Below the pieces are notes generated by a model. That model was not told the DNA's origin. It saw only the letters and a list, made by a program, of their open reading frames with translations, and did no database searches. Position numbers and translations under genes: made by a program. 64,000 bases of DNA from a virus, in IMG/VR virus record IMGVR_UViG_3300032268_001383, positions 1 to 64,000 of that record; one strand, given 5' to 3'. Positions 10,308 to 60,696 of this stretch are shown piece after piece (positions within the stretch are counted from its first letter, which is position 1; every line of letters starts with the position of its first letter).

Positions 10308-10958
10308 TCATTTACTCATGTCTGTTGGATTCAATTCTTCTAAGTATGGCATAAATGCCTCCAAATTACAATCATTCTTAACATTGTTCGATTTTATCGC
10401 ATCTAATATCTTTTGAATATTCTTAGAGTCAATTTCTAATATAGAATCGCCATCTGATCCCAAGCTTGCTGTTTTACGGCAACCATATGCGCCTCGAAAT
10501 TCAAAATGAAGGAATAATCTTTTAGATGACATATTTGTCAAATTTACTAGTGTAATAGTAATTGATGATATCCCATTTGGTGTATTTATACTTCCGTTCG
10601 GAGCGATTAATTGAGCTGAAATAATATCACCTGAAACTTTCCTATAAAATGCTTCAAATTCTATTTTAAAGTCCTCAACCTTATTTAATTGAATGGTAAT
10701 CTCAATATCCTGAATTTCTCTAAGGTCCGATATCTTAATAGTCTTTGATTCAATTTCATATCGAGTTTTCAATCTTTCTGATAATTCATTATATCTTATC
10801 ATAATTTTTGATATATCTTTTGGAATACCAGAGTAATAAAGTTTGATTAAAGATCCACTTGGAGTATACTTAAATCCTTCAACTTCTGTAAAATGTAAAA
10901 AGTAGTCAGTTATTTCATGTGGTAGAATTGATTCATTAAATTTCATTATACGTTTCAT
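10308..10958 (-). CDS. hypothetical protein with N-terminal leader MKRIMKFNES
   Basis: In-frame ATG at 10958 begins the shared leader motif. Confidence 0.65.
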   Translation of the reverse strand: MKRIMKFNESILPHEITDYFLHFTEVEGFKYTPSGSLIKLYYSGIPKDISKIMIRYNELSERLKTRYEIESKTIKISDLREIQDIEITIQLNKVEDFKIEFEAFYRKVSGDIISAQLIAPNGSINTPNGISSITITLVNLTNMSSKRLFLHFEFRGAYGCRKTASLGSDGDSILEIDSKNIQKILDAIKSNNVKNDCNLEAFMPYLEELNPTDMSK

Positions 10959-11205
10959 CTTTTTCTTTTTTTTTTCTATTTGATTTTTCATAATCCTGAT
11001 AAGATTGTATGCCAGTTTCTATTGGATTTTGGATATACATGATATTTGCTCCCTGTTTATTCATATCCGAAATTTTATCACCAATGTCACCACCAATTTC
11101 CTTATTCATTACAGATTTAATCTTTTTAAGTTGATTTACGGTAGATTGTTGAGGTAAAGATTCTTTTATTAAAAATTCACTGAATTTTAAAACCTTATCA
11201 TTCAT
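10936..11205 (-). CDS. small hypothetical protein with leader MNDKVLKFSEFLIKES
   Basis: 89-aa ORF in operon. Confidence 0.65.
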   Translation of the reverse strand: MNDKVLKFSEFLIKESLPQQSTVNQLKKIKSVMNKEIGGDIGDKISDMNKQGANIMYIQNPIETGIQSYQDYEKSNRKKKEKDETYNEI

Positions 11206-11208
11206 TCT

Positions 11209-11808
11209 TTAATTTTGATGTTTTATAACCCACTGTGCGAGTTTTTTGTGTCCTGTTCCACCCATATGAATTCCATCACCTGTATCAGAATATTTGATAG
11301 TAGTATCTATTGGAATTATTTTACAGTTTTTGAGTTCTTTAGACATCATCTTTTGTAATTCGATGTATCGAGCTACTGATCTTTTAGTAGTTGCTTCATC
11401 ATAAACTGTTTTAATTGTTACTCTTGCTGGATCGAATCCTAACACCACAATCGGTTCAATGCCTCTTCTATTACAAGTATCAATCATCATTTGAGTATAC
11501 TTTAATGATTGTTTTAAATCTACATAACAGAAGGCATCATTACATCCACCATAAATATAGACTCTACTATAAGCTGAATCTGTTTTTAATTGTTGATCTA
11601 AACGGTGCTTCATCCATTCTAATCTTTTTCCACCAACAGAAACATTAGTATAGTTACTACCCCCATGTGTAGCAACTTGATGTTGCCAACCATAGGCATA
11701 ACAAGTTAGACTATCACCTACAAAAAGAACTCTGAGTGGTGGTGTTTCAAATCCGAAAACTGTTGTAAAAATTACAGTTAATAAAATTGTTGATAAAAAT
11801 TTTTTCAT
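11209..11808 (-). CDS. SGNH/GDSL hydrolase with signal peptide
   Basis: 'FVGDSLT' block I, 'GGCND' block III, 'DGIH' block V; hydrophobic N-terminus. Confidence 0.85.
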   Translation of the reverse strand: MKKFLSTILLTVIFTTVFGFETPPLRVLFVGDSLTCYAYGWQHQVATHGGSNYTNVSVGGKRLEWMKHRLDQQLKTDSAYSRVYIYGGCNDAFCYVDLKQSLKYTQMMIDTCNRRGIEPIVVLGFDPARVTIKTVYDEATTKRSVARYIELQKMMSKELKNCKIIPIDTTIKYSDTGDGIHMGGTGHKKLAQWVIKHQN

Positions 11809-11814
11809 AATTTA

Positions 11815-12057
11815 TTATTGATTTAATTTTTTATCCTCCGGTAAATCAAATCCAGATAGGGGATAGGATTCAATAATTTCTATAGGTTTCATCATTTTGT
11901 AGGTAACGTGTTCGGTTTTCCATTCGGTAATCACGTGGTAAAAATTTTTGATACCAGATTTTATTATTTTTGTAAAAAGAAACGGTGATTCTTTTGTGTG
12001 TTCGATAATTGTCATAATTGAATTCACTTTCTTTACATTATTTATTATTTTTTCCAT
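11815..12057 (-). CDS. hypothetical protein
   Basis: 80-aa ORF filling the operon gap. Confidence 0.55.
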   Translation of the reverse strand: MEKIINNVKKVNSIMTIIEHTKESPFLFTKIIKSGIKNFYHVITEWKTEHVTYKMMKPIEIIESYPLSGFDLPEDKKLNQ

Positions 12058-12070
12058 TTATAAAGTTTGT

Positions 12071-14242: not shown

Positions 14243-14257
14243 TTGTATTAATTATTT

Positions 14258-14692: not shown

Positions 14693-14711
14693 TATTATTT
14701 AGATTTAGAAG

Positions 14712-16975: not shown

Positions 16976-16984
16976 TAATATATA
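16976..16984 (+). promoter_or_regulatory. putative late promoter TAATATATA
   Basis: Recurrent motif 20 nt before the structural operon start. Confidence 0.6.
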
Positions 16985-20223: not shown

Positions 20224-23200
20224 TGAAGAGTCACGCAATATTAAGAACTAATGTCGGGTTAACAACTAACGCAAAGGTAATGGTGAGTAGTAATTACTCA
20301 CTGTTCATAGATTCGATAATATCAACTTCAGCTCTATCATCTACGAAATATAAAAGAAGAGAATTTAATAAGTCAAATTATTTAGATGAAATTATACCAA
20401 TCTTTTTCAAAGATACACCAGCGGATGTTGCATTTTTTATAAAAGATGACTTTGACAATAAAAATATGTCAAAAGATTTTGCCAAGCAATATGATGATAT
20501 TTACCAATATAGTGCAAGAAATATAACTGAAAATAAAGATTATAGAGAGGAATTCGAATATTTTGCCCCATTACATATTTCAAAAGGTAATTTACCTTCA
20601 AATTTTGTTATATTTAGAATTGATGGTCCCGGATTAAACATTATGAATAAAGATAATTTCAATGATGAAATTGTCAACAAACTTAAATGTGTAAAAATTT
20701 TTGATATGACAAGGTCAACACCTTTGGGTGAATGGTTAGATTTAAACATAACTTCAAATAGGAATTTCCCATCTACTGGTCTTTATATCGATTTTAGAAA
20801 ATTAGAATTCTCAACTTGGAATGGAATCGATTATGAAACTGGTGGTTATAGTGAAAAATCATTCATGTTAGATGATGTTCTTAGTAAAGAACAAACATAT
20901 CTAGATTTTGAAAAATTCATATTAGAAGGTTATAAGAATAATAAAGTAGTTTATCCAAGTATTATAAATTTTAGTTTTCTATTTGATGATACACCGGCTA
21001 CTCAGACTTCACTAAGAACTTGGTCATTGAATCGATATCTTGGATTTTATTTAGATAGTCTAGAATTCGTAAAATATGTTAGTCCATATATTCTATTGTC
21101 ACTAAAATCAGATGTTGTTATAGACTCTAATAATATAATTTATAGTCTATCAGAGGGCAACCCATTTTTAGAATCATTCAGAAACGAGGAAAATTTTTAT
21201 ATAGAAATAGGTGGTGTATTCTATAAAATTGAAAGATTTTTAGAACAATTACCTTCAGTGGTTGATAAGGTGCAGATAAGTAATGTATTTTTTGAGGATT
21301 TACCCAATCAATCATTTATCACAAGGTATAAAATAATAAGTGATGTCAATTTAGAGGGAAGACAATCAGAAATAAATAAAAATCTTGTTTATCTAGATTC
21401 TTCAACAGGTAATAAATTGTTATACAGCGATAAATCGACATTCGAAATCGAAGGTTTTGATGATGCTGACGTTTGGTTGATAGAAATAAATAATAAATTT
21501 CATAACATAGTTAAAAGGGATGGTGATTTTTATATAAACACCGACTCTGGATTTTATCAGACTTTAGATAAATTTGAGTATTATATTAACGACCCTGATC
21601 CAAAATTTAGAGTAAGTATTTCATTAAAGGTTGGTGAAAATATTGCCCCTAAACAATTTGGAATTTACAGATGTAAGTTTACTGATATCAAGGATTTTGA
21701 TACTGATATTGTAGATACCGAATATTCTAAATTTGAATATATGTATGTAGGAAAACCTACCATTACAGACGAAACTAAGATGTATGCTGTTAATGTTGAT
21801 TCTAGATCGTTACCAAAAGATTTAGATGATTTCAAGATTAATGGAACCGTAGTAAATATACCTGCTTCATCTGAGTATATAGCAAATTCTGAAATATTTA
21901 GAATAGAGGATAATGACTTATCTATACTATGGAAGAAAAATTCACAAAGAATCAAATGGGGATTTAAAAATTCAATCTCCTCAAATGATTATGCATACTT
22001 ATTAAATAACTCTTTTTCATCAGAAGATTATAATAGAACTGTGAACCCCTATAACCCTGCACCCGGGAGACTTGATAGAAATTTAGACTATTTTTATACA
22101 GTTAATGCTGATTCTTCTGAATATTCTCATCAAAGCCTACATATTGTTGATGATGGTTTCGTGAATTTTGGGGGCGCGGATAACATCAATAATTTATTAA
22201 GACTAACAGGAATCTTAGATATAAGTTATTTTAGTTTATATGATAAGATTGAAATCACTTTGGATAATAATACTATTCCTGCATACAACACAACTACGAT
22301 AATTGAAAGTATTGATTTTCTGGTAAACTCTGGTTGGAGAATAACAACATCTCTGAATTTCATGGGTGGTACCGTTTCCGGTAAGATAAAAAACCAAACA
22401 AGAACCCCATTCTCATTAAATAAATATTTGAATATTGGACACGAATCTGATTATTTTACTGAATTTTTTAGTAAAAAAACTAATTTTGATTCTGGAAATT
22501 TGGTGAAAAATACGAAAAAGTGGTCATTATTCAACACAGGTGATGGAAGTATTCCAAATATAACCTTATTCAGAGGGTTGAAATTCAAAGTACAAAATGT
22601 TAGTGGATTGAAAGTAAAAGAAGATTTTATTGAGGCTATAAACACAAGTTCTAATAATGAATTTGAAAATTACAAATTTTCTATACTTTTAAGTAAGAAT
22701 AATTACACCGTATCATCCGATGTACAATCCATAAATATCGCAACAGTAAGTTATTCAAATAATACTATGAAATGGATAATTATTGATGAATGGAAACATG
22801 ATAAGATATACTCCGGAGGTGATATTGTAAAATGGAATGAGTCAATTTACATATCATTGACTCAATCTCAAATAGTAGATCCGAATATTTTCCCAGCTAA
22901 TTCAAATCAATGGGGTATTTATACTAATAAAAACATATTTTGGAATCCAGTTGTAGATGGTTCTTCTCCAACTATTTCGAAAAATAATATGTTGGGGTTA
23001 GGTCAATTTTTGTTTGATTCATCTACAATTTTACCACCACTTGTATTTAATCATGGGGAATACTATTATTCTTCTGGTGGTTCTGGAATAAATTTCTGGA
23101 ATCCTAACCTAACTTATAGTATTGGGAACAGTGTTTTATATCAAGATAAGATTTGGACATCAACCACAAGTAGCAATACATTCAGACCCAAATCAAATTC

Positions 23201-24524
23201 AACATATATAGAAAGTGATGGTACCTATCAAGACTATTGGATTTTAGATAGCAACTCAAATTCAATATGGACTTCTGTTGAATTATGGAGTCCACTTATA
23301 GATTATAATCAGACAAATTCAAATTGGAACAATTCTTTTACACCAGGTCATTATGTTATCTTCGAAGATGTGGTTTATGCCACAATTACAAGTCCAACTA
23401 TAGGGGTTAATCCGAAACTTGATATAAGTTGGAAAAGAGTTTATAGTTTTGTGCAAGATACTAATTTTTTCTACTTCAACAATTTCAACAATGGTAACAA
23501 TCCAATTATAAAAATGAATAATCGATATTACCTATGTATTGATAATGGTGAAAGAAATATTCCAAACACATATTCAACACTAGAAAATGGTATCAACATT
23601 TATATAAACAAAAAGTGGAAAAATATTCTAATAAATATTTATGTCAATGACAACACTTACACAATTTCTGAAGATTTAGGTTTATCTACAATAATTTTCA
23701 AGAGAGACAATCTTTCTAACACAAAAAGAGACGATATTTATCTGGATTTATATTCTAAATTAACGGCTAATAATTTTATGAATGCCTTAAATGATTTAGA
23801 TAATCCATATGAATTTTCAGATAAAGTAAGATATATAGTTATTGAGGAAGATTTATCACTTAAGATTTGGAACTTTAATGATTTGAATTCGGTCTCGAGC
23901 TTACCCTATATTATTAGCTGTGAGGGTCCAGATGAATTCTTAGTTAAGTTAGACTCTTTTAAAGTTGAACCATCAACAATCTCTCTTAGTGAAATAAAAC
24001 CAAGAAGAAGATTATTAAACGGTGATATTAATTCGATGGAACAAATAAATTATTATTCGGATTTAAGTTTATCTACAATTATTAAAGATAATAAATCTGA
24101 TAGTGTCAAAGTTATAAATTATTCATCTCTGAAAAATAATTTATATAACAATTTATTCAGACACAGTGGGTATTATTCCCCAATATTTCACGATATAGAA
24201 ATTTTTGAGTCTTCTAATAACTATAAATTTGATACAACTCTAACTAATTTTGGTAAAATTAAAGAAAGAGTCATTTCGAAAATAAATAGACAGAACAACA
24301 TTTTGAAACTTAGAAATAATTCAAATTTAGTTTCTATCTATCCGATGTTAGATGAATTTGGTTACCACACAATTTCATTTTATATTTTTAAATCCACTTG
24401 GGATTTAGAATATCATATTGAATGTCAGGAAATACCACAAACAGAAGTCGTCACTGGAAATCAATCTATACAGTTTATTCCACAGAATAATAGTACAATC
24501 AATTCAAACTTAAATTTATTATAA
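20223..24524 (+). CDS. large virion structural protein with carbohydrate-binding-like repeats
   Basis: 1433 aa; 'W...IY..GDIVKW', 'WNPNLTYSIGNSVLY' CBM5/12-like repeats. Confidence 0.6.
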   Translation: MKSHAILRTNVGLTTNAKVMVSSNYSLFIDSIISTSALSSTKYKRREFNKSNYLDEIIPIFFKDTPADVAFFIKDDFDNKNMSKDFAKQYDDIYQYSARNITENKDYREEFEYFAPLHISKGNLPSNFVIFRIDGPGLNIMNKDNFNDEIVNKLKCVKIFDMTRSTPLGEWLDLNITSNRNFPSTGLYIDFRKLEFSTWNGIDYETGGYSEKSFMLDDVLSKEQTYLDFEKFILEGYKNNKVVYPSIINFSFLFDDTPATQTSLRTWSLNRYLGFYLDSLEFVKYVSPYILLSLKSDVVIDSNNIIYSLSEGNPFLESFRNEENFYIEIGGVFYKIERFLEQLPSVVDKVQISNVFFEDLPNQSFITRYKIISDVNLEGRQSEINKNLVYLDSSTGNKLLYSDKSTFEIEGFDDADVWLIEINNKFHNIVKRDGDFYINTDSGFYQTLDKFEYYINDPDPKFRVSISLKVGENIAPKQFGIYRCKFTDIKDFDTDIVDTEYSKFEYMYVGKPTITDETKMYAVNVDSRSLPKDLDDFKINGTVVNIPASSEYIANSEIFRIEDNDLSILWKKNSQRIKWGFKNSISSNDYAYLLNNSFSSEDYNRTVNPYNPAPGRLDRNLDYFYTVNADSSEYSHQSLHIVDDGFVNFGGADNINNLLRLTGILDISYFSLYDKIEITLDNNTIPAYNTTTIIESIDFLVNSGWRITTSLNFMGGTVSGKIKNQTRTPFSLNKYLNIGHESDYFTEFFSKKTNFDSGNLVKNTKKWSLFNTGDGSIPNITLFRGLKFKVQNVSGLKVKEDFIEAINTSSNNEFENYKFSILLSKNNYTVSSDVQSINIATVSYSNNTMKWIIIDEWKHDKIYSGGDIVKWNESIYISLTQSQIVDPNIFPANSNQWGIYTNKNIFWNPVVDGSSPTISKNNMLGLGQFLFDSSTILPPLVFNHGEYYYSSGGSGINFWNPNLTYSIGNSVLYQDKIWTSTTSSNTFRPKSNSTYIESDGTYQDYWILDSNSNSIWTSVELWSPLIDYNQTNSNWNNSFTPGHYVIFEDVVYATITSPTIGVNPKLDISWKRVYSFVQDTNFFYFNNFNNGNNPIIKMNNRYYLCIDNGERNIPNTYSTLENGINIYINKKWKNILINIYVNDNTYTISEDLGLSTIIFKRDNLSNTKRDDIYLDLYSKLTANNFMNALNDLDNPYEFSDKVRYIVIEEDLSLKIWNFNDLNSVSSLPYIISCEGPDEFLVKLDSFKVEPSTISLSEIKPRRRLLNGDINSMEQINYYSDLSLSTIIKDNKSDSVKVINYSSLKNNLYNNLFRHSGYYSPIFHDIEIFESSNNYKFDTTLTNFGKIKERVISKINRQNNILKLRNNSNLVSIYPMLDEFGYHTISFYIFKSTWDLEYHIECQEIPQTEVVTGNQSIQFIPQNNSTINSNLNLL

Positions 24525-29524: not shown

Positions 29525-29548
29525 AATTAAATTTTAATATATATGTTT

Positions 29549-29761
29549 ATGAAATTTTTATTAGAGTTTAATTCTTTTTTTAAAGAGGGTGATACAGTTT
29601 TAATTAAATACTGGTATAACGGAATGGTTACACCAGTAAAAATTCTAAAATCCAAAGGGGAGCACTTCAAAATCTCTCATAATATACCAGAATCAAAAAT
29701 ACAAAATGCTCCCGATGATTTGATAGAAAAAAAGAGAGTCATTGGACTATATCGAGTTTAA
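29549..29761 (+). CDS. small SH3-like protein with leader MKFLLEFNSFFKE
   Basis: 'GDTVLIKYW..PVKI' pattern; preceded by TAATATATA at 29535. Confidence 0.55.
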   Translation: MKFLLEFNSFFKEGDTVLIKYWYNGMVTPVKILKSKGEHFKISHNIPESKIQNAPDDLIEKKRVIGLYRV

Positions 29762-30987: not shown

Positions 30988-31031
30988 GCTTTTTACTAAT
31001 TTTATTTTAATATATAAAAGAAAAATTGTTA

Positions 31032-31607
31032 ATGAAAATTAGTAATTGGAATAAATTTAATGAATCTGTAAGTGATACTTTTACTGAGGAAATGGCTCAA
31101 GAGATAATTTATTATTTTTCAGAGGAGTCAAGACCATCTAAGCATATATCAGATTTATTCACCCAGTGTAAAGACCAGTGGGGAGAAATAATCGACACTA
31201 TGTATGAAACTTCCTATGAAGAAATGAAAGAGATGATAGAAAAACTGTATAGTCTGATTCAAACAGGAAGTTTAGATTTCAGAGATTCGATGATTGAAAT
31301 CTATACTAAAATTAGAGAAGAAAGGAAAGATTTCCCAGAAGTTTATGAAATTGAAGATGCTTTCTTAGATTTAATTGAAGGACATGGTTTTACTTTTATG
31401 ATTTACTCTGATTTAAAAAAGTATGAAATAAAATTACATAGCCCTTGGGGTGGTAATAGTACGAAAATGGAAGATTTTATAAACTATTGTAATTTAGTAA
31501 AGAACCCTATAAGTAAATTAAGTAAATACAGTACGAAACTAGTGGAATGTGAATTTATCAATAGGAGATATTCTTATTGTGTTTTTAAAGTAGAAATAAC
31601 AAATTAA
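31032..31607 (+). CDS. hypothetical protein with leader MKISNWNKFNES
   Basis: ATG at 31032, TAATATATA at 31008. Confidence 0.7.
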   Translation: MKISNWNKFNESVSDTFTEEMAQEIIYYFSEESRPSKHISDLFTQCKDQWGEIIDTMYETSYEEMKEMIEKLYSLIQTGSLDFRDSMIEIYTKIREERKDFPEVYEIEDAFLDLIEGHGFTFMIYSDLKKYEIKLHSPWGGNSTKMEDFINYCNLVKNPISKLSKYSTKLVECEFINRRYSYCVFKVEITN

Positions 31608-31622: not shown

Positions 31623-32183
31623 ATGCAAATTAAAAAATTTTTAAAAGAATCTATTGAACCAATCAAAGTTTCTAATGAAAAAAATCCAGGTTTAGTAAAC
31701 CCAAAAACATTACCTACAGAAATCATTTCTGTTTTAGAAGAAAGAATCGGTGATGAATATACAGCTTATTATTTTTATAGAAATGCTGCTAACTGGTGTA
31801 AAGATAAAAATTATAAAAGGGCTACTCAATACTTTGAGTCAGAAGCGTCATCTGAACTCGAACACTCAAAAGGTCTTCAAGATTATCTAACTCAATGGAA
31901 TACATTTCCAAGTGTTCCACAAGTTGAGACTACAGCAAATTACGAGTCACTTGTAGATATTATAAATAAAGCTTATACTTTGGAATATAATTTATTTCTT
32001 AAATATTCAAAAGACCAACAATCATTTACAAATCTACATCCTGCTACATTTAATTTCATTCAAAAATATGTAGATATACAAAATGATTCTGTTTCTGAAT
32101 ATTCTGATTTATTGAATGCTCTTAATTTAATTGATTATACAGATAAGTTCCAGATATTATATTTCGAACAAACTTATTTCTAA
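31623..32183 (+). CDS. ferritin-like protein with N-terminal leader extension
   Basis: Ferroxidase pattern 'EYTAYYFY', 'EASSELEH', 'LEY', 'Q..SVSE'. Confidence 0.85.
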   Translation: MQIKKFLKESIEPIKVSNEKNPGLVNPKTLPTEIISVLEERIGDEYTAYYFYRNAANWCKDKNYKRATQYFESEASSELEHSKGLQDYLTQWNTFPSVPQVETTANYESLVDIINKAYTLEYNLFLKYSKDQQSFTNLHPATFNFIQKYVDIQNDSVSEYSDLLNALNLIDYTDKFQILYFEQTYF

Positions 32184-32187: not shown

Positions 32188-33471
32188 ATGAGAATCAAGA
32201 ACTGGCTACAATTCAAAGAAAATAAACAATTAGATTTTTTCGAAGGTACTCCTTATGAACATCCGAATTTAGTAGAAAAAGGAATTTGGATACTCACTAA
32301 GGAAGACTTGGAAGAATATTTCATTGACTTTATCGACGAAGGTTGGGATGTCAGATTTTTTTATGGATTTTGGAGTGAATTATATGATATTGATAGTTTA
32401 ATTATTAAAAGAGATATGTTACCACTTATTAGAGTCTATATTGACGGTGTATCAGGTAGTAAAGGTGGTGACTACTTAACCAATTCTCTACTTTCGGCTC
32501 TTAACAGATTGACACCAAGATTCAAAAAGGTAAAGGTTTTTGATGAAGAGGGCTCATTAAATCCAAAAGATTTAAAGTTCGAAGGAAGTTCAATTTTTAT
32601 CAAATCTGATAGTGACAACATTGAAGATGAGATAGAAGTTGAAAGTAGTTTAATGATTGATTTGATTTGGATTAAAGAAGTTTATCTAACTGATAAAATG
32701 ATATTCACATATTATGAATTTGAAGAGGAATTTAAAGAAGGTGACTTGAAATATGATGAAAAAGGTAATGCATTTGTAGGCTTTCCAGTTGAAGATATTA
32801 AAGATTGGGTTTTAGATAAAAAATCTAGATATAGAGACGTTGTTGGTGATAAAGATATGATGGATTCAGATTTTTACTATGATTATGACGTAGATGATGA
32901 TTCGATATTCTCTTACTATTTTGATTCTGAAACTAAAAGATTATTATTAGAAAAGTGTATTGGTGAAGAATTTAAAAATTTACAAGAAGAATATCATTTT
33001 TTAAATAACTACAACTCATTAGAAGAATTGATTGTGGCTACAATGAAAGGTGGTTGGAATAACAGAAATCTTTACGAACAATTAGGTGAAATGTTATCCA
33101 AAATTTCAGATGTTTATGAACAATTGAAAGAAATATATGATGGGTATTATGGTTCAGCTAAAATGGATTCAGATTATGATGCTATAATGTCTTCTTTTTA
33201 TGGAATTGTAGAAGATGTTTTAGACACTCCAATAGTAGAAGAGTATACAAAAGACGGTAAATTATTTTATAGATTGAAATTCAAATTTGAATGGATAGAA
33301 TGGACAGACGGTCCTCAATATATTAAAAGTGGTTTAGAATACATTATATCTAATTGGTGTCATAGAAAATATGATTACCGTAAATTAAATCCAAGATTTA
33401 GTGATTCTGCAGATATAGATAATAAAGAGTTCAATGCGGAATGTAGAGAAATTCTTAATAATTCAAAATGA
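32188..33471 (+). CDS. acidic hypothetical protein with leader MRIKNWLQFKEN
   Basis: In-frame ATG at 32188 just after the ferritin stop. Confidence 0.7.
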   Translation: MRIKNWLQFKENKQLDFFEGTPYEHPNLVEKGIWILTKEDLEEYFIDFIDEGWDVRFFYGFWSELYDIDSLIIKRDMLPLIRVYIDGVSGSKGGDYLTNSLLSALNRLTPRFKKVKVFDEEGSLNPKDLKFEGSSIFIKSDSDNIEDEIEVESSLMIDLIWIKEVYLTDKMIFTYYEFEEEFKEGDLKYDEKGNAFVGFPVEDIKDWVLDKKSRYRDVVGDKDMMDSDFYYDYDVDDDSIFSYYFDSETKRLLLEKCIGEEFKNLQEEYHFLNNYNSLEELIVATMKGGWNNRNLYEQLGEMLSKISDVYEQLKEIYDGYYGSAKMDSDYDAIMSSFYGIVEDVLDTPIVEEYTKDGKLFYRLKFKFEWIEWTDGPQYIKSGLEYIISNWCHRKYDYRKLNPRFSDSADIDNKEFNAECREILNNSK

Positions 33472-34055
33472 AATACTTAAAAAATTTTATAGATTTGTTC
33501 GAGTCCTTAGAAAGTTCTGAAGATAGAATTCACTTTTCAGGTAAAGAAATTAATACTTTAAGAAATACAATTCAAAAAGATAAACCTGAATTTAAACCTC
33601 GAGGTCTTTGGTATGCCTTTGGTGATGACTGGGGTAGGTTCTCCGACGACTTTAGAGATAACGACTATAAGTATAAGATAATATTGAAAGAAGGCTCAGA
33701 ATCAAAAATTTTAAAGATTACAAGTATATCTCAATTAAATAGCTTCATAAAAAAATATGTCGTAAAAACAGGTCTTAATTTAAGAGGAGTTAGATCATCG
33801 GTGAAATGGAAAGAAGTCGCTAAAGATTATTCTGGATTTGAATTTCTAAATTATGAAGAAGACTCAATCAGAAATTTCTACTGGGATGAAGAGCTTGTCG
33901 AAAGGGAGAAATCTAAGTTGACTAGTAAGTTTGATATGTTTTTGATGGATAAATACTCAAAAGAAGGATACTATGATTGGTGTCACTGGTTTGATGTAAT
34001 TAGTGGTTGTATATGGAATGTATCAATAATTGAAAGTATAGAACCTATAGATTAA
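33468..34055 (+). CDS. hypothetical protein with leader MKYLKNFIDLFES; possible ADP-ribosyltransferase-like fold
   Basis: 'RIHFS', 'KPRGLWY', 'WFDVISGCIWN'. Confidence 0.6.
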   Translation: MKYLKNFIDLFESLESSEDRIHFSGKEINTLRNTIQKDKPEFKPRGLWYAFGDDWGRFSDDFRDNDYKYKIILKEGSESKILKITSISQLNSFIKKYVVKTGLNLRGVRSSVKWKEVAKDYSGFEFLNYEEDSIRNFYWDEELVEREKSKLTSKFDMFLMDKYSKEGYYDWCHWFDVISGCIWNVSIIESIEPID

Positions 34056-34678: not shown

Positions 34679-35113
34679 ATGAAAAATTCTCCAAGAAGAA
34701 ATAAAGTAAGATTATTTAACGAAATGATTGATCCTTCCTTATCTAAGGAATTGGAATTAGACAAAATAAGTAAAGGTTTATCTAATCAAGATTATTTCTT
34801 TTCAAGAAAAGAAGTAGATAAAACTTGGGAATTTGAATACTTTGATATTTATGTTGAGAATATGCACTTTCAACAAGGTTACGTTATAGTTCCAATAGAA
34901 ATTACCAGTGATGGATTTTTACATAGAATGTTTTTAGCTTATTCTCAAGATGAAGATATTTTCTATGGTTCAATGACTGGTGGAACCGGTATACAGAAAA
35001 TTAAGAAGATGTTGGGTGAGTATAAGTTTGCATTTTTAGAAGAAGCTACTTCTGAAATCGTGGATGAACTTTTACCCTCTGACTTTTGGGATGTCAGAGG
35101 ATATTCTAATTAA
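34679..35113 (+). CDS. hypothetical protein with leader-like MKNSPRRNKVRLFNEM
   Basis: 144-aa ORF. Confidence 0.6.
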   Translation: MKNSPRRNKVRLFNEMIDPSLSKELELDKISKGLSNQDYFFSRKEVDKTWEFEYFDIYVENMHFQQGYVIVPIEITSDGFLHRMFLAYSQDEDIFYGSMTGGTGIQKIKKMLGEYKFAFLEEATSEIVDELLPSDFWDVRGYSN

Positions 35114-38596: not shown

Positions 38597-38613
38597 ACTT
38601 GATTAATCTTTTT

Positions 38614-39726
38614 TTATATTATATAACATTTTATAGATAAAGTTACTTTTTGAATACCACTACAAGAATCTACATTGAATCTAATAAATTCATTTTCAGA
38701 GACTGATGTTGTCCAAGAAGATAAAGCCAAATCTTGATTTTTACTTTGAGTAGCCAATGTCGGTCTTTCTGTTCCTGTAATACTATTAGAGGCAGATGGT
38801 GGGTAATTAGCATAAGTATTTTTCCAAACATCTATTACAATACTTCCTGTTTGAGGACTAAATAGGGTCCAAGAATCAATTGTAAGATTATATGGAATAA
38901 AAACATCACCTTTTACACCTGTTGTGATATCACTACCTGCCCCATCTAATGATATACCAATTGTTCTTATTAGTGAAGAAGTAGAACCTGGACCAGCCGG
39001 TCCAGTTGCACCTTGTGGTCCAGTCGCGCCCTGTGGACCTGGTATTCCTGTGCTAATAGGTATAAATATTAAATCTTCATCATTAGAAAAGGTGTACCCA
39101 CCCCCTTGATATGAAACCGGAAATTCCCAATAGAAATTCGGACTCGACCCAAATTGAGAAGGTGTTGATGATACTAACCAATCTTGGTAGTAATTAGATA
39201 TAGTGGAGTTTTGTATAATTATCGAATCGTTGATAGAAATAAAAGACAAAAATAAATCAATGTCAATATTGTCCTGAGTTGTCATATTAACAAAAATAGA
39301 AGTTGAGCTCGATTGTGTAACATTGTTCCAACTTAAATATCCAGAACCTGGGTCACCACTATATATTGTTGTGTTTGCCTTATAATCATAAAAACTCAGT
39401 GATCTACCGTTAGATCCAGCAGGACCTGTTGGTCCAGCAGGACCTGTTACCCCTATTGAGCCTATTGGACCCGTTGGACCTGTTGGGCCATTGGCACCTG
39501 TGGCACCTTGTGGTCCTGTCAACCCTATCGACCCAGTGGGTCCAGCAGGTCCTGTTGCCCCCTGAGATCCAGTCAACCCAGTATCACCAATTTGTCCTTG
39601 TGGTCCGATTGGATTAACATTTCCTAAAGTTTCCCAAGCATAACCATTCCATTTCCAAGAATCACCTGATGTTGGATTTGTATAAACTTGACTAAAAGTC
39701 GGATTTATTGGAAATATTATTGGCAT
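38614..39726 (-). CDS. collagen-like tail fibre protein
   Basis: Gly-X-Y runs (GPTG, GATG, GPQG); N-terminal 'FP.NP...W.WNG.AW'. Confidence 0.8.
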
Positions 39727-39754
39727 ATTATTCGTAATAACTTAAATTTATATC

Positions 39755-53745: not shown

Positions 53746-54030
53746 TTAATATTGATTTCCTTTTATGAGTATAACTTTTTCACTTTTTGACCAACCAGCT
53801 GTGTCTGATAAACTATCTCCTCTTCCAGTACATCTACCAACAGTGGTCTCAACTATTTCCAAAATTTCAGATGGTTCCTCTGCAACATTTACAGCAACTT
53901 TTGTGTTTTCGTCGAATTTTTTCAAATAGTTAATCAATTGTCCAACAGTTGATAGAGGATTATCAAAGTACCCATCTAAATCCCATTCTTCCATTTCATT
54001 AAATTTTTTTAAGTTTGTCATTTTTTTCAT
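53746..54030 (-). CDS. hypothetical protein with leader M(KKM)TNLKKFNEM
   Basis: 94 aa; 'TVGQLINYLKKFDENTKV'. Confidence 0.65.
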   Translation of the reverse strand: MKKMTNLKKFNEMEEWDLDGYFDNPLSTVGQLINYLKKFDENTKVAVNVAEEPSEILEIVETTVGRCTGRGDSLSDTAGWSKSEKVILIKGNQY

Positions 54031-54085: not shown

Positions 54086-54724
54086 TTATTCTTCATCATC
54101 ATATTCCTCTTCACCATCATCATCATCATCATATTCTTTCTGAATTTTGATTTCCTTTACATCATTAGTTATTTCTTTTACTAATCTTTCTAATGTTTTT
54201 TTGCCTTTAATTGCAACATTCCAATGTTTATCAATTAAATCATATATTATTTCTAATATATCTTCTTTAGTTGAATCATTTTTTAATTTAAAATACTTAT
54301 TTATATAAGTACTCCTAACTTCATCAATTGAGATAAGAGAAAATATCATTACACTTTTTAGATAATCAGTATAAGTGATATTTATTTCTAATCCCATAAC
54401 CAAATTTAAATACTTATCTAAAGTACATAATTTGATGGTTTTGTGTATTTCATCTGGTTCAAAATACTTTGAAGCACTAAGTCCAAATTGATCTACTCCA
54501 TTATATTTTTGTATAAATTCATCAAGTGTTTTACAATCTTTGTTGATAGTGAATCTATCGATTATAGCCTTAGAAACCTCTTCGATATACTCTGGTGAAG
54601 ATTTAAGAAGAAGTAAAGCCATCTTAATATCTGATGTATTATTAGTTAATATCATATCACAGATATTATTTGCTTGATTTGAGAAACTCTCATTAAACTT
54701 TTTAAATTTTAGTATTCTTTTCAT
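54086..54724 (-). CDS. hypothetical protein with leader MKRILKFKKFNES
   Basis: 212 aa, acidic C-terminus. Confidence 0.7.
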   Translation of the reverse strand: MKRILKFKKFNESFSNQANNICDMILTNNTSDIKMALLLLKSSPEYIEEVSKAIIDRFTINKDCKTLDEFIQKYNGVDQFGLSASKYFEPDEIHKTIKLCTLDKYLNLVMGLEINITYTDYLKSVMIFSLISIDEVRSTYINKYFKLKNDSTKEDILEIIYDLIDKHWNVAIKGKKTLERLVKEITNDVKEIKIQKEYDDDDDGEEEYDDEE

Positions 54725-54727: not shown

Positions 54728-55114
54728 TTAATTTAGTATTTCTTTTTTTAGAAACTCTAATAGTCCCATAAATTCATCACATTTGTATGTAGATTCATGA
54801 TAGTCACCATCATCATATGGTTCATATGAGTATAGAAAAACATAGTACCACTCATCATGATCTTTAAAAAAACGTAAATCAATATATAGATCACCTATAT
54901 CCAAATAAAATTCTTCTTCTTCAAATTCAGTAGTTGGAGATTTTCGGACTGAAACATCTTCAAATTTTTCTTGAATCATATCATTTATAATATCAATTTC
55001 CTCTTGGATGATGGGAACTATACCTTCTATTTTAGAACCATACACTTCATCAGACACAACTTGATAAAGTTCCGAATTATCCTCAAATAAATTATAATTT
55101 TTTATATATCTCAT
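54728..55114 (-). CDS. hypothetical protein with leader MRYIKNYNLFED
   Basis: 128 aa; shares YKC..F.GL domain with neighbour. Confidence 0.7.
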   Translation of the reverse strand: MRYIKNYNLFEDNSELYQVVSDEVYGSKIEGIVPIIQEEIDIINDMIQEKFEDVSVRKSPTTEFEEEEFYLDIGDLYIDLRFFKDHDEWYYVFLYSYEPYDDGDYHESTYKCDEFMGLLEFLKKEILN

Positions 55115-55141: not shown

Positions 55142-55906
55142 TTACCAAAGTGTCATGTAGTATTCGGCTACCCAATTATGTATTCCATCGATAAGGCATT
55201 GCTCTAAACCAACAAAGTCAAAACATTTATAATAATATTCACTATGGTTAACATTCATAATAGCAAAATACCTATCATCATCATCCCTACAAAACGAAAA
55301 TTCAGAGTCCGACATTTGATTAAATATTAATTTTACAACCTCCCCAACTTTTGCTACCTTTATATCTAATAGTTGTTCAGGTATATCTAAATATTTCTTT
55401 TTACTCAATTCTTTTTTGAAAAAATTTAAAACATTTTCAATTTCATTTTGACGAATTGTCTCAAGTTCAGGGTCATATTTTTTTTCATCACTTTCATCTA
55501 CCGAACATTCTATTCCATCTTCTGAAAAAGTGATATTTTGTATTTCTTTCCAAAATTCTCTATCTTGTTCTACTGTTATAGTTTTGGAATCTGTACCAAA
55601 ATCATTTTTGCAAGTAAGAGTAATTTCATTAGTGCCCTGCTTTAGTTTAAGATAATTTGCAACGAAATTCGAATTCTTATCAAATCTGAAATCCATCAAT
55701 CCTCCAGGTTCAAATCTAAAGTTAGTAAATTCAACACCATTAACTTCTAAAGTTATGTTACTTGCATCATCAATGTTTGAAATCTTAGCCTGTATGGTAA
55801 TATTATGATGTTGGGTGAAAATTTCATCTGAGTTAGGGACAATAATTGATATTATTGGTAACTGTCCTGAATTTTCAAAAAGTTTAAAAGTTTTTAAATG
55901 TTTCAT
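55142..55906 (-). CDS. hypothetical protein with leader MKHLKTFKLFEN; Ig-like domain plus YKC domain
   Basis: 'P.ISIIVP..ITLEVNG..LKQGTNEITLTCKN..G.DSKTITV' Ig-like domain. Confidence 0.7.
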   Translation of the reverse strand: MKHLKTFKLFENSGQLPIISIIVPNSDEIFTQHHNITIQAKISNIDDASNITLEVNGVEFTNFRFEPGGLMDFRFDKNSNFVANYLKLKQGTNEITLTCKNDFGTDSKTITVEQDREFWKEIQNITFSEDGIECSVDESDEKKYDPELETIRQNEIENVLNFFKKELSKKKYLDIPEQLLDIKVAKVGEVVKLIFNQMSDSEFSFCRDDDDRYFAIMNVNHSEYYYKCFDFVGLEQCLIDGIHNWVAEYYMTLW

Positions 55907-55932
55907 TTTGTATTACTTAAATTCTGTTTTAT
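55882..55932. repeat. direct repeat copy A (51 bp)
   Basis: 47/51 identical to 56822-56872; 28-bp perfect core attttgtattacttaaattctgttttat. Confidence 0.9.
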
Positions 55933-56846
55933 TTACTAATGAATTTTTTAAATTTATCTAAAAACTCAATAAAATCTTTATCAAATAAATTTATACTTAT
56001 TCCAATATCTTTTAATGAGTTGATATAGTCAGAGAAATATTTTTTATCATATATCGTAGATTGTTCCAGAGTTTCAATTCCTATATTTGGGTACATTTTT
56101 TCATATCCTATATAAGTTTTGTAGTCATTCTTCTCAACGTATTGTTTCAATTTATCCAAATTCCTATCAATTATACCAACATATTTTTCGTAATCAACAT
56201 CTTCTAAATTATCAAATGAATATTCATAAAATAATTTTTCTAAAGTTTCAAAAGTTGTATTCCAATCATATATACTTTTGGCAAAATCATCTCCCTGAAA
56301 TTTAGTTTTTACATATGGAAGTATTTCACTCTTTTTAAATTCAGTTCTCTCAACCCATTCAGGGTATTTCTTTTTTAATTCATCAATTAGTTTGGAAATC
56401 CTTTCCACAATCCTATCTTCAAAAATTATAGTCTTATCATTATAAAGCCCTTTCCCTTCGTCATAAATCTCCTTGAAATCACTTCCTTTATTTATGTGCA
56501 ATTGAACAGCGCCATACTCATTAGTTGAATCGAGATAATGGTGATCAACATAAAATAAAGAAGTAATATTTTTTCTATTTTGTGGGGTATTATCAACATC
56601 ATAAAATTCAATGATTGAATCAATAATTGAATTTGTAACAACATCTATAATAATGCTGGACTTATTTATTCGAGCTGCGTCAAATTGAATTTGCTTCTCA
56701 TTCTTACCAATTACTGTACGTCCCCTTTTATGACCCGTAATTTTGGTTAATGCATCAATTAAATTATTTGAAATGAAAGTATTGACATCGTAACTATCCA
56801 ACGATTTTAATTCATTTAATTGTCTAAAAGTCTTTAAACGTTTAAT
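55929..56846 (-). CDS. hypothetical protein with leader (ATT)KRLKTFRQLNE
   Basis: Track ORF starts at TTG 56801; the in-frame upstream leader begins at ATT 56846, aligned with the ATG in the repeat copy. Confidence 0.65.
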   Translation of the reverse strand: MKRLKTFRQLNELKSLDSYDVNTFISNNLIDALTKITGHKRGRTVIGKNEKQIQFDAARINKSSIIIDVVTNSIIDSIIEFYDVDNTPQNRKNITSLFYVDHHYLDSTNEYGAVQLHINKGSDFKEIYDEGKGLYNDKTIIFEDRIVERISKLIDELKKKYPEWVERTEFKKSEILPYVKTKFQGDDFAKSIYDWNTTFETLEKLFYEYSFDNLEDVDYEKYVGIIDRNLDKLKQYVEKNDYKTYIGYEKMYPNIGIETLEQSTIYDKKYFSDYINSLKDIGISINLFDKDFIEFLDKFKKFISK

Positions 56847-56872
56847 TTTGTATTACTTAAATTCTGTTTTAT
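56822..56872. repeat. direct repeat copy B (51 bp)
   Basis: Matches 55882-55932 at 940-bp offset. Confidence 0.9.
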
Positions 56873-57962
56873 CATTTGATAAATAAAAATCATCGAAGTT
56901 AAAATATTTTTCATAGACTTCTCTAATTTTGTTTATGTTAACTTTTTCAACAATATCTTTAACAGACCAACCTTTCGGTAAAATCCAATGATTTACATTA
57001 CTAAATCGATTAATCCTATCCTTTTTTAACTTAATCAAATAAGATTCTTTAATTGTTTCCAACCTTCCTTTAGTGATATATTTATCAGGGTTAGTAATTA
57101 CTGTTCTTACAGCATCATAAACACTTTCAACATTCTTAGAAGATGTCTGTGTTGTTATCGATGTCACACCTTGTTGATTCATTCTTGATTGAAAACATCT
57201 AATATAGTATACTAATCCTCTTTTTTCTCTTACTTCTGTATAAAGTGGTGAAGATAAACCAGATGATAACATACTATTTATGAAAGTGATATAAGCGAAG
57301 TCCGATTCTGCTACCGGAGAAACCATAATTAAGGAAGATTTATCACCAAAATCATTCATCTTTTCTATAGTCGCCTCTGGATAAGGTCCAAATTTTACTT
57401 TTTTGTTTATCTTAGGTTGAAAGAAATCAATATCATCTCTATCAAATTTTGTTTTAGCGGAAACATTGATAATTTTTGTTGGGTTTTGAAATTGTAATTC
57501 GAAGAAATTTAGACAATCCATAAATTTAAGATTTTCTAAATCTTCTCTCCTTCCAATTGGATCATAGTCTAAAAACAACTTTCTGCCTAAATTCAAAGCA
57601 TGCGATTCTGTTTGTTCCCCAAAATAATCTGTGTATTCTTGAAGAACAATATTTCTTTCTTTTTCGAAGTCCTCTTTAGTAATATTAAATTGTGACATCA
57701 AGTCAAAAATTTCATATTTACGTGCGTTTATGTTCTCTTCTAAGCCAGTAAAATAAAAAACTATATTATTACTATCGGTATAGGCATTCCAGTCAATAGA
57801 TTCTCTTTCTAAATCTTCTCTTAGATGTTCGAAATTTTTGCACATTAAATGTTCTCCTAAATGTGCCAACCCTTTCCAACCTTCTTTTTCTAAATTAGTA
57901 GAACCTTCGTAAACGATATAGAATCCAGATAAATCTGTTTGACTTTTGAGATTAATAATCAT
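56853..57962 (-). CDS. M16 (pitrilysin/MPP-family) zinc peptidase
   Basis: Inverted zinc motif HLGEH, 'NAYT', 'EKERNIVLQE', 'SSPLYTEVREKRGLVY'. Confidence 0.9.
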   Translation of the reverse strand: MIINLKSQTDLSGFYIVYEGSTNLEKEGWKGLAHLGEHLMCKNFEHLREDLERESIDWNAYTDSNNIVFYFTGLEENINARKYEIFDLMSQFNITKEDFEKERNIVLQEYTDYFGEQTESHALNLGRKLFLDYDPIGRREDLENLKFMDCLNFFELQFQNPTKIINVSAKTKFDRDDIDFFQPKINKKVKFGPYPEATIEKMNDFGDKSSLIMVSPVAESDFAYITFINSMLSSGLSSPLYTEVREKRGLVYYIRCFQSRMNQQGVTSITTQTSSKNVESVYDAVRTVITNPDKYITKGRLETIKESYLIKLKKDRINRFSNVNHWILPKGWSVKDIVEKVNINKIREVYEKYFNFDDFYLSNDKTEFK

Positions 57963-58116: not shown

Positions 58117-58227
58117 ATTCAAATTATATATTAAAATCAATAACTGTAATATTAATGTATGAAAAAAAGTTTTAAAAAGGTAAGAAAAAAGTAAGAAGAA
58201 AACAAGTGTTATTTAATATATAGTACT

Positions 58228-59196
58228 ATGATAGTTACAGAAAAAGTATTAATAGAAGTTAATAATAAAAATATCCATATTTTTAGGAAAAAATTAGGTT
58301 GTGATATAGAAATAGGATTGAACGAAATCTCTGTTAGAGATTTATCTAAGGGTAGTCATTTCAAAGTAGAAGTGAAGTGTGATTCTTGTGAAAGTATTAA
58401 TAATATAGAATGGAGAGCCTATTTGAAATTCACAAAAGATGAAACTGATATTTATTGTTGTAAAAAGTGTAACAATGTTAAAGTCCGTAAGACAAATTTG
58501 GAAAGATACGGTGTTGTCTGTAACTCTCAATTAGAAAGTAATAAAAAAAAGGTAAAAGAAAAGTCACATTCATCAAATATAAAAAGAATAGACACGCTTG
58601 AGAAGAAATATGGTGAATTTTATTTTGATGTTATATCTGAAAAAAGGAAAAAAACTATGTTCAATAAGTATGGTGTACAAAGCTCATTTCAAATTGAGGA
58701 AACAAAGGAAAAAAGGAAAAAATCACTAAAGGAAAAATATGGATCAGAAACATTCAATAATCCAGACAAAACAAAAAATACAAGAATATGTAATGGAACT
58801 CAAATAAATGATGACTTGATAAACGATTTCATAGACTATAAAAAAATTGCTGTCAATAGAACAAATACTATTTATAACAACAATAAAGATATAATTAATC
58901 CATTAAAATACAAACGTTCTCAAAATGATTATCATATAGATCATAAATTTTCATTAAAGCAAGGATTTTTGAATAATATACCAATAGAAATAATAACACA
59001 TCCTTTAAATCTACAAATGATATATTGTAAAGAAAACTTATCAAAACAAGATTCTTGTTGTATATCTCTTGAGGATTTGTTGATTTTAATCTTTGAAAAC
59101 GACATCGAAGTAAAAATAAATCATACTTACATAAAAGAAAAATACTCTAATATCAAAGCAACCGTTGAGAACATACTCAAAGGTATCAAAAAGTAA
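58228..59196 (+). CDS. HNH-type homing endonuclease-like protein
   Basis: Zn-finger 'VKCDSC..CCKKC', repeated (E/K)(R/K)YG helices, 'YHIDHKFS..HPLNLQMI...ENLSK'. Confidence 0.75.
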   Translation: MIVTEKVLIEVNNKNIHIFRKKLGCDIEIGLNEISVRDLSKGSHFKVEVKCDSCESINNIEWRAYLKFTKDETDIYCCKKCNNVKVRKTNLERYGVVCNSQLESNKKKVKEKSHSSNIKRIDTLEKKYGEFYFDVISEKRKKTMFNKYGVQSSFQIEETKEKRKKSLKEKYGSETFNNPDKTKNTRICNGTQINDDLINDFIDYKKIAVNRTNTIYNNNKDIINPLKYKRSQNDYHIDHKFSLKQGFLNNIPIEIITHPLNLQMIYCKENLSKQDSCCISLEDLLILIFENDIEVKINHTYIKEKYSNIKATVENILKGIKK

Positions 59197-59255
59197 CCAC
59201 TAAATGCATTTTTTCAAGAATGAAATCTATGTAATTAGATAAATATTTCATTTCT

Positions 59256-60050
59256 TTATTTTTTATATGTTGAATACCACTGATTCAATAATTCTAACGC
59301 TTCTTCTCTTGTTGAAACACTATTAACAATTTTTCCAAATTCAGATTTATAAAAATTTGGTATATCGGCACCACTCAAACCTAAATCAGAAAAATCGTCT
59401 TTTGTAATTAATTGTTCTTTTTTATATGATTTTGCGGCTTTTACTTCTTCTGGTTTTCTTGTAACATTTACTGGGTCAGTAGTCCATGCAAATAGCGGAT
59501 ATTTTCCCCAATATGGGCTTTTTAATAAATCTGAGACAGTTCCGAATCCTATGAATTGTGCTTCTAATAATGTATCTATTTTGTTTTGACACAATTCAGT
59601 TAATTCGGATTTATCTTTACCCAAATCTGATTCTTGCAAAAAATTTCGATCTATTCTATTGAGTTCTTGACTAATTATAGGATTTTTTCTTATGGCTCCA
59701 GTTAGAGTATATCCATAATTGTAATACCACTCATTGATTGTAACGAAAAATGTCCATCCAATAACTGAGTTCTCATCTAGTTTTACTACATAAACATGTT
59801 TACCATATACTGATTTCAAGTCCGGTGAGAAAGCCTTTTCATCCATAAAATGAACACACCTCAATCTGTCAGGAAAACCAGCATTTATTAAAGAATCATT
59901 CCAAATATTCTGACCAGTCAATATTCTATCTTTACTTCTTGACCATTCTATTTCGGTATTGTCACCAATGATATCTTCATGACTGAATCTATAAAATTGA
60001 GGAGATTCAAGATAAGCTTCAAATAATTTAAATGTTTTAATTCTTTTCAT
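59256..60050 (-). CDS. hypothetical protein with leader MKRIKTFKLFEA
   Basis: 264-aa ORF. Confidence 0.7.
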   Translation of the reverse strand: MKRIKTFKLFEAYLESPQFYRFSHEDIIGDNTEIEWSRSKDRILTGQNIWNDSLINAGFPDRLRCVHFMDEKAFSPDLKSVYGKHVYVVKLDENSVIGWTFFVTINEWYYNYGYTLTGAIRKNPIISQELNRIDRNFLQESDLGKDKSELTELCQNKIDTLLEAQFIGFGTVSDLLKSPYWGKYPLFAWTTDPVNVTRKPEEVKAAKSYKKEQLITKDDFSDLGLSGADIPNFYKSEFGKIVNSVSTREEALELLNQWYSTYKK

Positions 60051-60051
60051 T

Positions 60052-60696
60052 TTAGTATTTGTTTAATATATTATTGTCCGATTGGACATATTCACCTAAT
60101 TCATTTCTTTGTAAAATATTGCCTATTTCATCAAATTTATAAAATTTATAAGCATCTTCTTGTCTTTCTACTAAGTAATAGTTATTTGGGTTGAGATTAA
60201 GGTATTCTTTAAGATTTGTTTTTTGTTTTTCGTAAGAATGTCTTAGATAATCCGTTGGTACATTTCTATCTCTTTGGATATTACCTATCTGAGCCATTTC
60301 CAAGCTACCTATCAAGTGAATAAAAATTATATCGAATCCATTCTGAATAGACTTATTGTAAATATTTTTAATATTTTCGAGTTGAGTTCCGGTTGTATCA
60401 TAGATAAATGATGTTCCATTGTCGATAAAATAAAATAATCTATCTAAATTTAATTTAGAAGCTGTAGAATGATATGATTTTGGATCTTTAGTGAATTTTA
60501 AAGAGACATCGTCAGTAGAGAATGTTTTTATATTCGGATTTCTTGGTTGGATAAATTTAGAAATGAAAGTCGATTTACCAATTCCAGGTGTGCCGAGTAA
60601 AATCACACCTAATCTATTAGAACGTGTTAATTTTGGAATTGGATCGTTCTTTGAATGTTCCTCAAGAAATTTAGTAAAGCTAAAAATATTCATCAT
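60052..60696 (-). CDS. P-loop kinase (AAA_33/zeta-toxin-like) with leader MMNIFSFTKFLEE
   Basis: GTPGIGKST, 'STDD', 'FIYDTTG', 'QRDRNVP'. Confidence 0.75.
   Translation of the reverse strand: MMNIFSFTKFLEEHSKNDPIPKLTRSNRLGVILLGTPGIGKSTFISKFIQPRNPNIKTFSTDDVSLKFTKDPKSYHSTASKLNLDRLFYFIDNGTSFIYDTTGTQLENIKNIYNKSIQNGFDIIFIHLIGSLEMAQIGNIQRDRNVPTDYLRHSYEKQKTNLKEYLNLNPNNYYLVERQEDAYKFYKFDEIGNILQRNELGEYVQSDNNILNKY

Follow-up and report, generated by a model that had tools for sequence, protein, structure and literature searches.

Why do proteins that are otherwise unrelated begin in the same way in a single virus? The question is raised by a stretch of 64,000 nucleotides, called here the window, which covers positions 1-64,000 of the IMG/VR contig IMGVR_UViG_3300032268_001383 (98,741 bp in total, 30% GC). 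The CheckV completeness of this contig is about 18%, which makes it part of a phage genome of about half a megabase. In a first-pass annotation of the window, 15 N-termini were described as variants of one short leader and a tag that addresses proteins to the phage head was proposed. All 15 are encoded at the starts and on the strands given below. The tag exists, it is specific to the N-terminus and it is selected as a peptide; its share in this huge-phage lineage is about 15–25% of the genes. Regarding its function, we think it probable that the leader is a capsid-targeting tag of the type known from phage T4, which would be removed by the prohead protease and is greatly expanded in number.

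Homologues of 58 of the 98 called contig proteins are present, in long syntenic runs, in the complete 642-kb genome LR756502.1, and LR745206.1 (634 kb) is likewise syntenic. Al-Shayeb et al. 2020 count both among their four largest curated genomes and in the 'Mahaphage' clade, for which Bacteroidetes hosts are predicted (PMC7162821). The Tenacibaculum phage PTm1 (29.7% GC), of the same host phylum and head lineage, was used as an AT-rich control, and Lak-A2 and LR756500 were examined as samples of 42 kb.

A shared leader on unrelated proteins

The leader can be detected without defining any motif. The first 18 residues of each protein were compared with those of the others by the best ungapped 10-mer match under BLOSUM62, and a top-3 score of at least 25 was taken as threshold. 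N-termini reached it in 26 of 91 proteins, compared with 1/91 when residues 41-58 were taken instead and 1/91 for composition-preserving shuffles. A regular expression matched within the first 25 residues of 17/98 proteins, the number expected from its internal rate being 2.8. With a single fixed definition of the tag, 12 of the 98 open reading frames (ORFs) of the contig carry it, as do 147/993 in LR756502.1, 1/321 in PTm1 and 2/274 in T4. Leader-level scores in a position-specific scoring matrix (PSSM) are attained at only 2–3 of 164,641 internal positions of LR756502.1. Two such internal sites are YLKAYKLFES (residue 127 of the ORF at 22663-23577) and RIKTYKVFEA (residue 96 of the ORF starting at 42885), and both probably reflect two genes merged by ORF calling.

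The similarity might also be a by-product of codon bias in an AT-rich genome, of constraints on translation start in a host that does not use Shine-Dalgarno sequences, or of descent from one diverged paralogous family. The codons for Lys, Asn, Phe and Ile are indeed AT-rich in this genome of 30% GC, MK- starts are common, and the leader codons are slightly A-richer than the genome average. Against AT bias stand the shuffles, the internal windows and PTm1, which at the same GC has a single tagged gene; the excess over the Lys- and Phe-rich N-termini of an AT-rich genome, on which the first-pass annotation depended, is borne out by these controls. Against a constraint at the RNA level stands codon use: synonymous codons are employed in the leaders as they are genome-wide and Ser is drawn from both TCN and AGY, so the constraint acts on the peptide and not on the RNA. 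Paralogy is opposed by what follows the leader. The sequences do diverge there, as had been claimed, since the best pair among the 26 tagged proteins has E = 0.065 once the first 25 residues are removed, and the 147 tagged proteins in LR756502.1 form 120 clusters. The bodies range from 59 to 758 aa, and the recognisable ones are a bacterial-type ferritin, a P-loop kinase, an ankyrin protein and a DUF5856 protein; most tagged proteins, and also the large structural-looking ones, had no match in searches of Pfam, PHROGs and PDB sequences. AT bias, RNA-level constraint and paralogy are rejected on these grounds, and we give them very little chance of explaining the leaders.

Likeness to the T4 capsid targeting sequence and to head proteins

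The capsid targeting sequence (CTS) of T4 is MKTYQEFIAE (PMC8442874). It is removed from the internal proteins IPII and IPIII by the protease gp21, and IPI and Alt have related propeptides (Mullaney and Black 1996, reviewed in PMC9026906 and PMC3012670); we found the sequence twice in the T4 genome, in IPII and IPIII. Mutagenesis has assigned targeting mainly to residues 4 and 7 and processing to residues 8 and 10, with Asp at position 10 blocking the cut, and gp21 cleaves after L/I-x-E (PMC9026906). The resemblance to this sequence that had been suggested for the window holds at the functional positions, since the leaders keep Tyr4 and Phe7 (as aromatics), Ile8 (as I/L) and Glu10, with the full skeleton preserved in part of them. 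As in T4, the tag occupies the extreme N-terminus, comprises about 10 residues with unrelated proteins behind it, and combines aromatics three apart with I/L/V-x-Glu, in which the Glu is irreplaceable.

The complete skeleton M-x(0-6)-Ar-x-x-[FYWL]-[ILV]-x-E (Ar being an aromatic residue) is found in six leaders of the contig (e.g. MNIKSYTSFINE and MKIKDFEKFLEE) and in 27 of LR756502.1, and in the other forms the Glu is retained together with both aromatics or one of them. From Met to Glu the leaders measure 9–13 residues. Unlike T4, the lineage has several interchangeable registers, namely …K-[IL]-F-E/S, …[FY]-N-E/S and …F-[IV]-N-E/[ES] (the slash follows the conserved Glu), usually with 1–3 extra N-terminal residues. 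In LR756502.1 the registers are M-K-[HY]-L-K-x-[YF]-K-[IL]-F-E/S, M-K-H-L-[KR]-x-[YF]-N-E/S, …I-K-[KR]-[YFW]-x-[DEQ]-F-[IV]-N-E/[ES] and …[FYW]-x-x-F-N-E/S. Conservation stops sharply past the Glu and a preferred Ser at the following position (P1'). When the pattern was applied without demanding the Glu, the next residue was Glu in 84 cases and Asp in 3, Asp being the commoner of the two in the proteome; a protease specific for Glu would lead to such a rule.

One tagged family, of 521 aa (contig 76533-78098), retains MK[ND]F[QK]KFLEE throughout 120 homologues; most of them have it at a length of 10 residues, like the T4 CTS, onto which it can be superimposed. The AlphaFold model of the 521-aa protein (pLDDT 77) has a free, low-confidence helix at residues 1-11 (pLDDT 36), followed by a confident body. 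No match for the protein was obtained in the ESM Atlas, in the PDB by Foldseek with the AlphaFold model, or in a profile search of PDB sequences. In the ferritin and the kinase of the window, the recognisable domain begins about 30 residues in, so tag and linker are an add-on that is missing from the cellular homologues.

A shared leader was looked for in PTm1 and none was found, no clear example of the tag was seen in the 42-kb samples of LR756500 and Lak-A2, and Flavobacterium phage MaF61 had no tag within the 32 kb examined. In Lak-A2 (MK250019.1, translated with TAG as a sense codon), three proteins of 350-390 aa (8557-9720, 37991-39073 and 39121-40170 of locus L066) share the N-terminus MNK[LQ]I[KR]xL[IL]E[SN]LFDDxDD; these may be paralogues or bearers of another tag.

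The head genes of LR756502.1 and LR745206.1 follow the T4 order, with a portal (E 1e-58), a protease-scaffold gene between, and a Gp23 capsid protein (E 4.5e-28). The protease-scaffold product is a fusion of about 700 aa, another difference from T4, and its N-terminal domain is S77-like and aligns with T4 gp21, including the GExxHP and SSRG segments that hold the catalytic His and Ser. Head modules in T4 order, with the protease His and Ser aligned, are also present in PTm1 and in the cultured Chryseobacterium phage MA9V-2 (OR513085.1, 218.5 kb), whose protease homologues exceed the Pfam S77 cut-off; the PTm1 fusion was annotated by its depositors as 'prohead core scaffolding protein and protease'. 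The scaffold part consists of 9–14 tandem units of 14 residues, NLDKNIxY[SA]EY[IL]AE, in LR756502.1 (225272-227371), LR745206, LR756504, LR756501 and 77 of 80 IMG/VR relatives. Each unit ends in a gp21-type [IL]-A-E site and has the Ar-x-x-Ar-[IL]-x-E skeleton of the CTS (YSEYIAE versus YQEFIAE), which elsewhere in the proteome is met once per 3,600 residues. This suggests that the tag may dock by imitating one scaffold unit. The repeats are missing both in PTm1, which is untagged, and in MA9V-2, which is tagged.

MA9V-2 encodes a related capsid protein and a related protease, and exactly four of its proteins begin with MK[NT]F[FT]xF[IV]NE/[AS] (OR513085.1 162897-163703, 166687-166935, 216401-216700 and 217802-218449). 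Its capsid protein (170818-172539) has WSEFINE/A at residues 18-24. In the whole MA9V-2 proteome there are seven instances of Ar-x-x-F-[IV]-N-E, in the four N-terminal leaders, at capsid residues 18-24 and at two internal sites. We think that this motif, common to the leader ends and the N-terminal region of the capsid protein, is the strongest comparative argument for leaders being prohead-protease substrates. Mahaphage capsid proteins keep [HQS]-I-N-E/N-A-Y in 80 loci. In a MAFFT alignment this I-N-E/N site was not aligned with the Glu65 site of T4 gp23, so the capsid cut position is predicted from motif and conservation. The comparison of leaders with capsid and scaffold sites that had been proposed to check the idea comes out in its favour in these relatives, with predicted cut positions: the motifs are alike in the MA9V-2 capsid protein, at the Mahaphage I-N-E/N site and in scaffold [IL]-A-E.

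Leader genes of the window and their surroundings

About 20–26 genes are tagged on the whole contig, about ten of them beyond the window (leaders there include MNIKSYTSFINED, MKSIKSYKDFLRED, MKIKDFEKFLEE, MKHIRKFKSFLKE and MKFIKTFESYE). Within the window, 12 of the 15 named leaders are clear and three are weak or odd, namely those at 34679 (MKNSPRRNKVRLFNEM), 31623 (MQIKKFLKES, with a single aromatic) and 56846 (ATT start). An internal Met has to be taken instead of the longest-ORF start at 10958, 29549, 31032, 32188 and 54021. The first-pass annotation had also held that replication and translation genes lack the tag, which is correct for those contig genes that have a recognisable function.

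Two tagged genes lie on the minus strand at 10308..10958 (216 aa, short leader form MKRIMKFNE/S, no Pfam match) and 10936..11205 (89 aa, MNDKVLKFSEFLIKE/S). On the plus strand, the gene at 29549..29761 (70 aa, MKFLLEFNSFFKE/G) is preceded at 29535 by the promoter motif TAATATATA, and its homologue in LR756502.1 begins with MKFLLEYKSFYNVDD, without the Glu. It is followed by 31032..31607 (191 aa, MKISNWNKFNE/S, promoter at 31008) and by the ferritin at 31623..32183, in which the weak leader MQIKKFLKE/S and a linker of about 20 residues precede a non-heme ferritin domain that starts at residue 31 (Pfam PF00210, E 4.7e-16; PDB ferritins, E 1e-13, query 31-171 against chain 3-145). Further genes of this strand are 32188..33471 (427 aa, MRIKNWLQFKE/N), 33468..34055 (195 aa, MKYLKNFIDLFE/S) and the weak candidate at 34679..35113 (144 aa, MKNSPRRNKVRLFNE/M, promoter at 34652).

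The remaining leaders of the window are on the minus strand. The genes at 53746..54021 (91 aa, MTNLKKFNE/M), 54086..54724 (212 aa, MKRILKFKKFNE/S), 54728..55114 (128 aa, MRYIKNYNLFE/D) and 55142..55906 (254 aa, MKHLKTFKLFE/N, with a weak match to the Ig-like Big_7 family) are tagged. At 55929..56846 a leader copy, IKRLKTFRQLNE, has ATT in place of ATG, the next start being a TTG at 56801; this leader may be a decaying tag or make use of a non-canonical start. Two more tagged genes are found at 59256..60050 (264 aa, MKRIKTFKLFE/A) and 60052..60696 (214 aa, MMNIFSFTKFLEE/H, with the full T4 skeleton). The latter encodes the P-loop kinase, whose kinase domain begins at about residue 30 (Pfam 6PF2K and AAA_33; PDB PSTK-type kinases, E 5e-5). 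Several conserved tagged genes at contig 63-84 kb, from the end of the window onwards, are interspersed with tail-like structural genes, and a DUF5856 / phrog_858 protein ('starvation-inducible regulator') with a weak leader is encoded at contig 78457-78951.

The motif TAATATATA resembles in kind the late promoter of T4, TATAAATA. There are 25 copies of it on the contig, of which 20 lie 8–84 nt upstream of called gene starts, 19 of them at 8–36 nt, so that the 5' leaders would be very short. In the form T-T-(T/A)-A-A-T-A-T-A-T-A it is found in the window at 16976, 29535, 31008, 34647, 34652, 41875, 52925, 58133, 58214, 63443 and other positions. It also precedes large structural-looking genes whose products start with 'MA…'; an example is the plus-strand copy at 16976..16984, 29 nt upstream of a structural-looking gene of 1072 aa. 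Nine tagged genes of the contig are downstream of the exact 9-mer and 11 when near-matches are included, giving 11/26 tagged compared with 10/72 untagged genes (p = 0.005). In LR756502.1 the motif stands before 39 of 88 tagged ORFs (44%) and 127 of 905 untagged ones (14%), an odds ratio of 4.9 (p = 1e-10); among its head genes, the portal has the exact 9-mer, and protease and capsid have near-matches with the ATATATA core. The association of tagged genes with a late-type promoter, which had been noticed in several instances, is thus an enrichment in both genomes, the promoter being common to structural genes.

Tagged genes turn over as cassettes, as in T4, with leader DNA inside a repeat. Two direct copies of a 51-nt sequence, 92% identical, are located at 55882..55932 and 56822..56872 and flank one tagged-gene cassette. 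Each copy covers the last part of the upstream gene, the spacer behind it and the first codons of the leader; the second copy has ATT for ATG. A homologue is missing in LR756502.1 for 14/25 tagged and 26/73 untagged genes, which is a trend only (p = 0.10). Next to the cassette, an untagged M16 (insulinase-type) zinc peptidase with an intact HxxEH motif (HLGEH) is encoded on the minus strand at 56853..57962 (Pfam PF00675 and PF05193), and it heads a run of five tagged genes. Its gene has 68% DNA identity in the 634-642-kb phages and is present in all tag-bearing Mahaphages that were checked, namely this contig, LR745206, LR756502, LR756504 and LR756501 (735 kb, two copies). No M16 homologue was found in PTm1, LR756500, Lak-A2, MA9V-2 or T4 with the same query that matched the gene in the other records. 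One may speculate that this peptidase possibly clears released leader peptides.

What the leaders may do

If the leaders are capsid-targeting tags, each would be an N-terminal helix of 9–13 residues by which a protein made late in infection attaches to the scaffold core while the prohead is being assembled. A T4-type prohead serine protease would then cut the leader off after the invariant Glu, and the mature cargo would stay in the head and probably enter the host with the DNA. The missing 80% of the genome to which the contig belongs presumably holds a head module like that of the syntenic relatives.

Other roles can be conceived for the leader. It could be the recognition or processing signal of the phage M16 peptidase, without a capsid role, much as a mitochondrial presequence or the leader of a RiPP. 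M16 enzymes are the classic presequence peptidases, and the position of this one at the head of a tagged operon, together with its presence in every tagged Mahaphage and its absence from PTm1, LR756500 and Lak-A2, speaks for such a role. However, T4 and MA9V-2 have leaders of CTS type without an M16 homologue, the co-occurrence is confined to the Mahaphage clade, and in MA9V-2 the leader heptad is found in the N-terminal region of the capsid protein as well. A near-absolute Glu at P1 with exclusion of Asp is a signature of gp21-type proteases and not of M16 enzymes, for which we know of no Glu-specific P1. Since the same type of tag exists without M16 and Glu specificity is not an M16 trait, we regard the peptidase as an improbable reader of the leader. 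The second possibility, to which we give slightly more credit while still thinking it unlikely, is an uncleaved amphipathic helix that docks proteins to a membrane, a compartment made by the phage, a phage J-domain chaperone, or the tail or baseplate. Hydrophobic residues are spaced at i, i+3 and i+6/7 and separated by Lys, as would fit an amphipathic helix, the tagged genes among tail-like structural genes agree with it, and in LR756502.1 a hydrophobic stretch comes directly after some leaders (e.g. MKNIKTYEDFVNEEINWKGVVAGAMSLLAT). A docking helix leaves unexplained, however, the invariant Glu without Asp, the sharp end at P1' and the identity with the capsid N-terminal site of MA9V-2. In addition, hydrophobic segments behind the tag do not speak against head cargo, for a transmembrane helix is predicted in a processed head protein of phage SPN3US too.

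Several observations weigh against the capsid-targeting reading that we prefer. The head genes (portal, protease-scaffold and capsid) are absent from the 98.7-kb contig and are taken from syntenic relatives. The full T4 skeleton is limited to part of the leaders, the commonest forms being K-[IL]-F-E/S and [FY]-N-E/S, with Phe, Tyr or Asn at the I/L-x positions of T4. A cargo of 147 different species in one head would be unprecedented. Published protein data for MA9V virions consist, in the two MA9V papers, of an SDS-PAGE gel of MA9V-1. In T4 itself, gp61.1 (NC_000866.4 18966-19130, minus strand), a 54-aa early hypothetical protein encoded next to the primase gene, starts with MKTFKEFIKED; it is not known to reside in the head, and an N-terminus that resembles the CTS therefore does not have to imply packaging. 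With the leader PSSM, the scaffold repeats are not among the top internal matches, and MA9V-2 is tagged without having the repeats, so the case for a scaffold mimic comes down to the shared skeleton. Finally, tag, scaffold repeats and M16 peptidase are found together within a single clade, and their association is phylogenetically non-independent.

A T4-type capsid-targeting tag has to be placed among the systems already known. About 20–26 tagged genes in 98.7 kb and 147/993 in the 642-kb relative contrast with a handful in T4, and the system is known here from sequence alone. The giant phages phiKZ, 201phi2-1 and SPN3US (Thomas, Black and colleagues; PMC5694885, PMC9026906) have many head-internal proteins that are processed after Glu by a gp21-related protease, with propeptides thought to target the prohead. 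Nevertheless, those propeptides mostly exceed 100 residues and share no common short tag, the motif is S/A-x-E or A-x-E, and 8–19 proteins are processed; the head module of the lineage described here is of the T4/PAU/Lak type and not of the phiKZ type. Encapsulins also come to mind, as a short cargo-loading peptide brings diverse proteins, including ferritin-like ones, into an HK97-fold shell, and one tagged protein of the window is a ferritin. Encapsulin tags, in contrast, are mostly found at the C-terminus, attach directly to the shell protein and stay on the cargo, and we do not claim homology. In the literature we found no description of such tags in Mahaphages or in other metagenomic huge phages. 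The T4 CTS type of tag is known already; what stands out here is the scale, the strict Glu rule, the scaffold repeats and the existence of a system for bench work.

A bolder version of the idea, which we offer only tentatively, is that the largest known phages load more than 100 fast-turning-over proteins, ferritin and kinase among them, by means of a clip-off tag that mimics the scaffold. This cargo would take about 15% of the coding capacity, much of the 'extra' genome of huge phages would be an injected proteome that sequence alone reveals, and the M16 peptidase would dispose of the tag peptides in the way PreP does for organelle presequences.

If the capsid-targeting reading is true, the virion cargo of uncultured huge phages would become predictable from their sequence. 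MA9V-2 makes the idea directly testable at the bench, as it is cultured and has four tagged proteins and the capsid motif, and foreign proteins could be packaged in phages of Bacteroidota with the tag as a handle. Under the capsid-targeting reading, many unexplained genes of huge phages would share a context, as encoding proteins that are delivered with the DNA and likely act in takeover and counter-defence. The T4 CTS has been described for a few proteins of a single model phage, and it would turn out to be an old and scalable loading system that extends across a wide T4-related branch.

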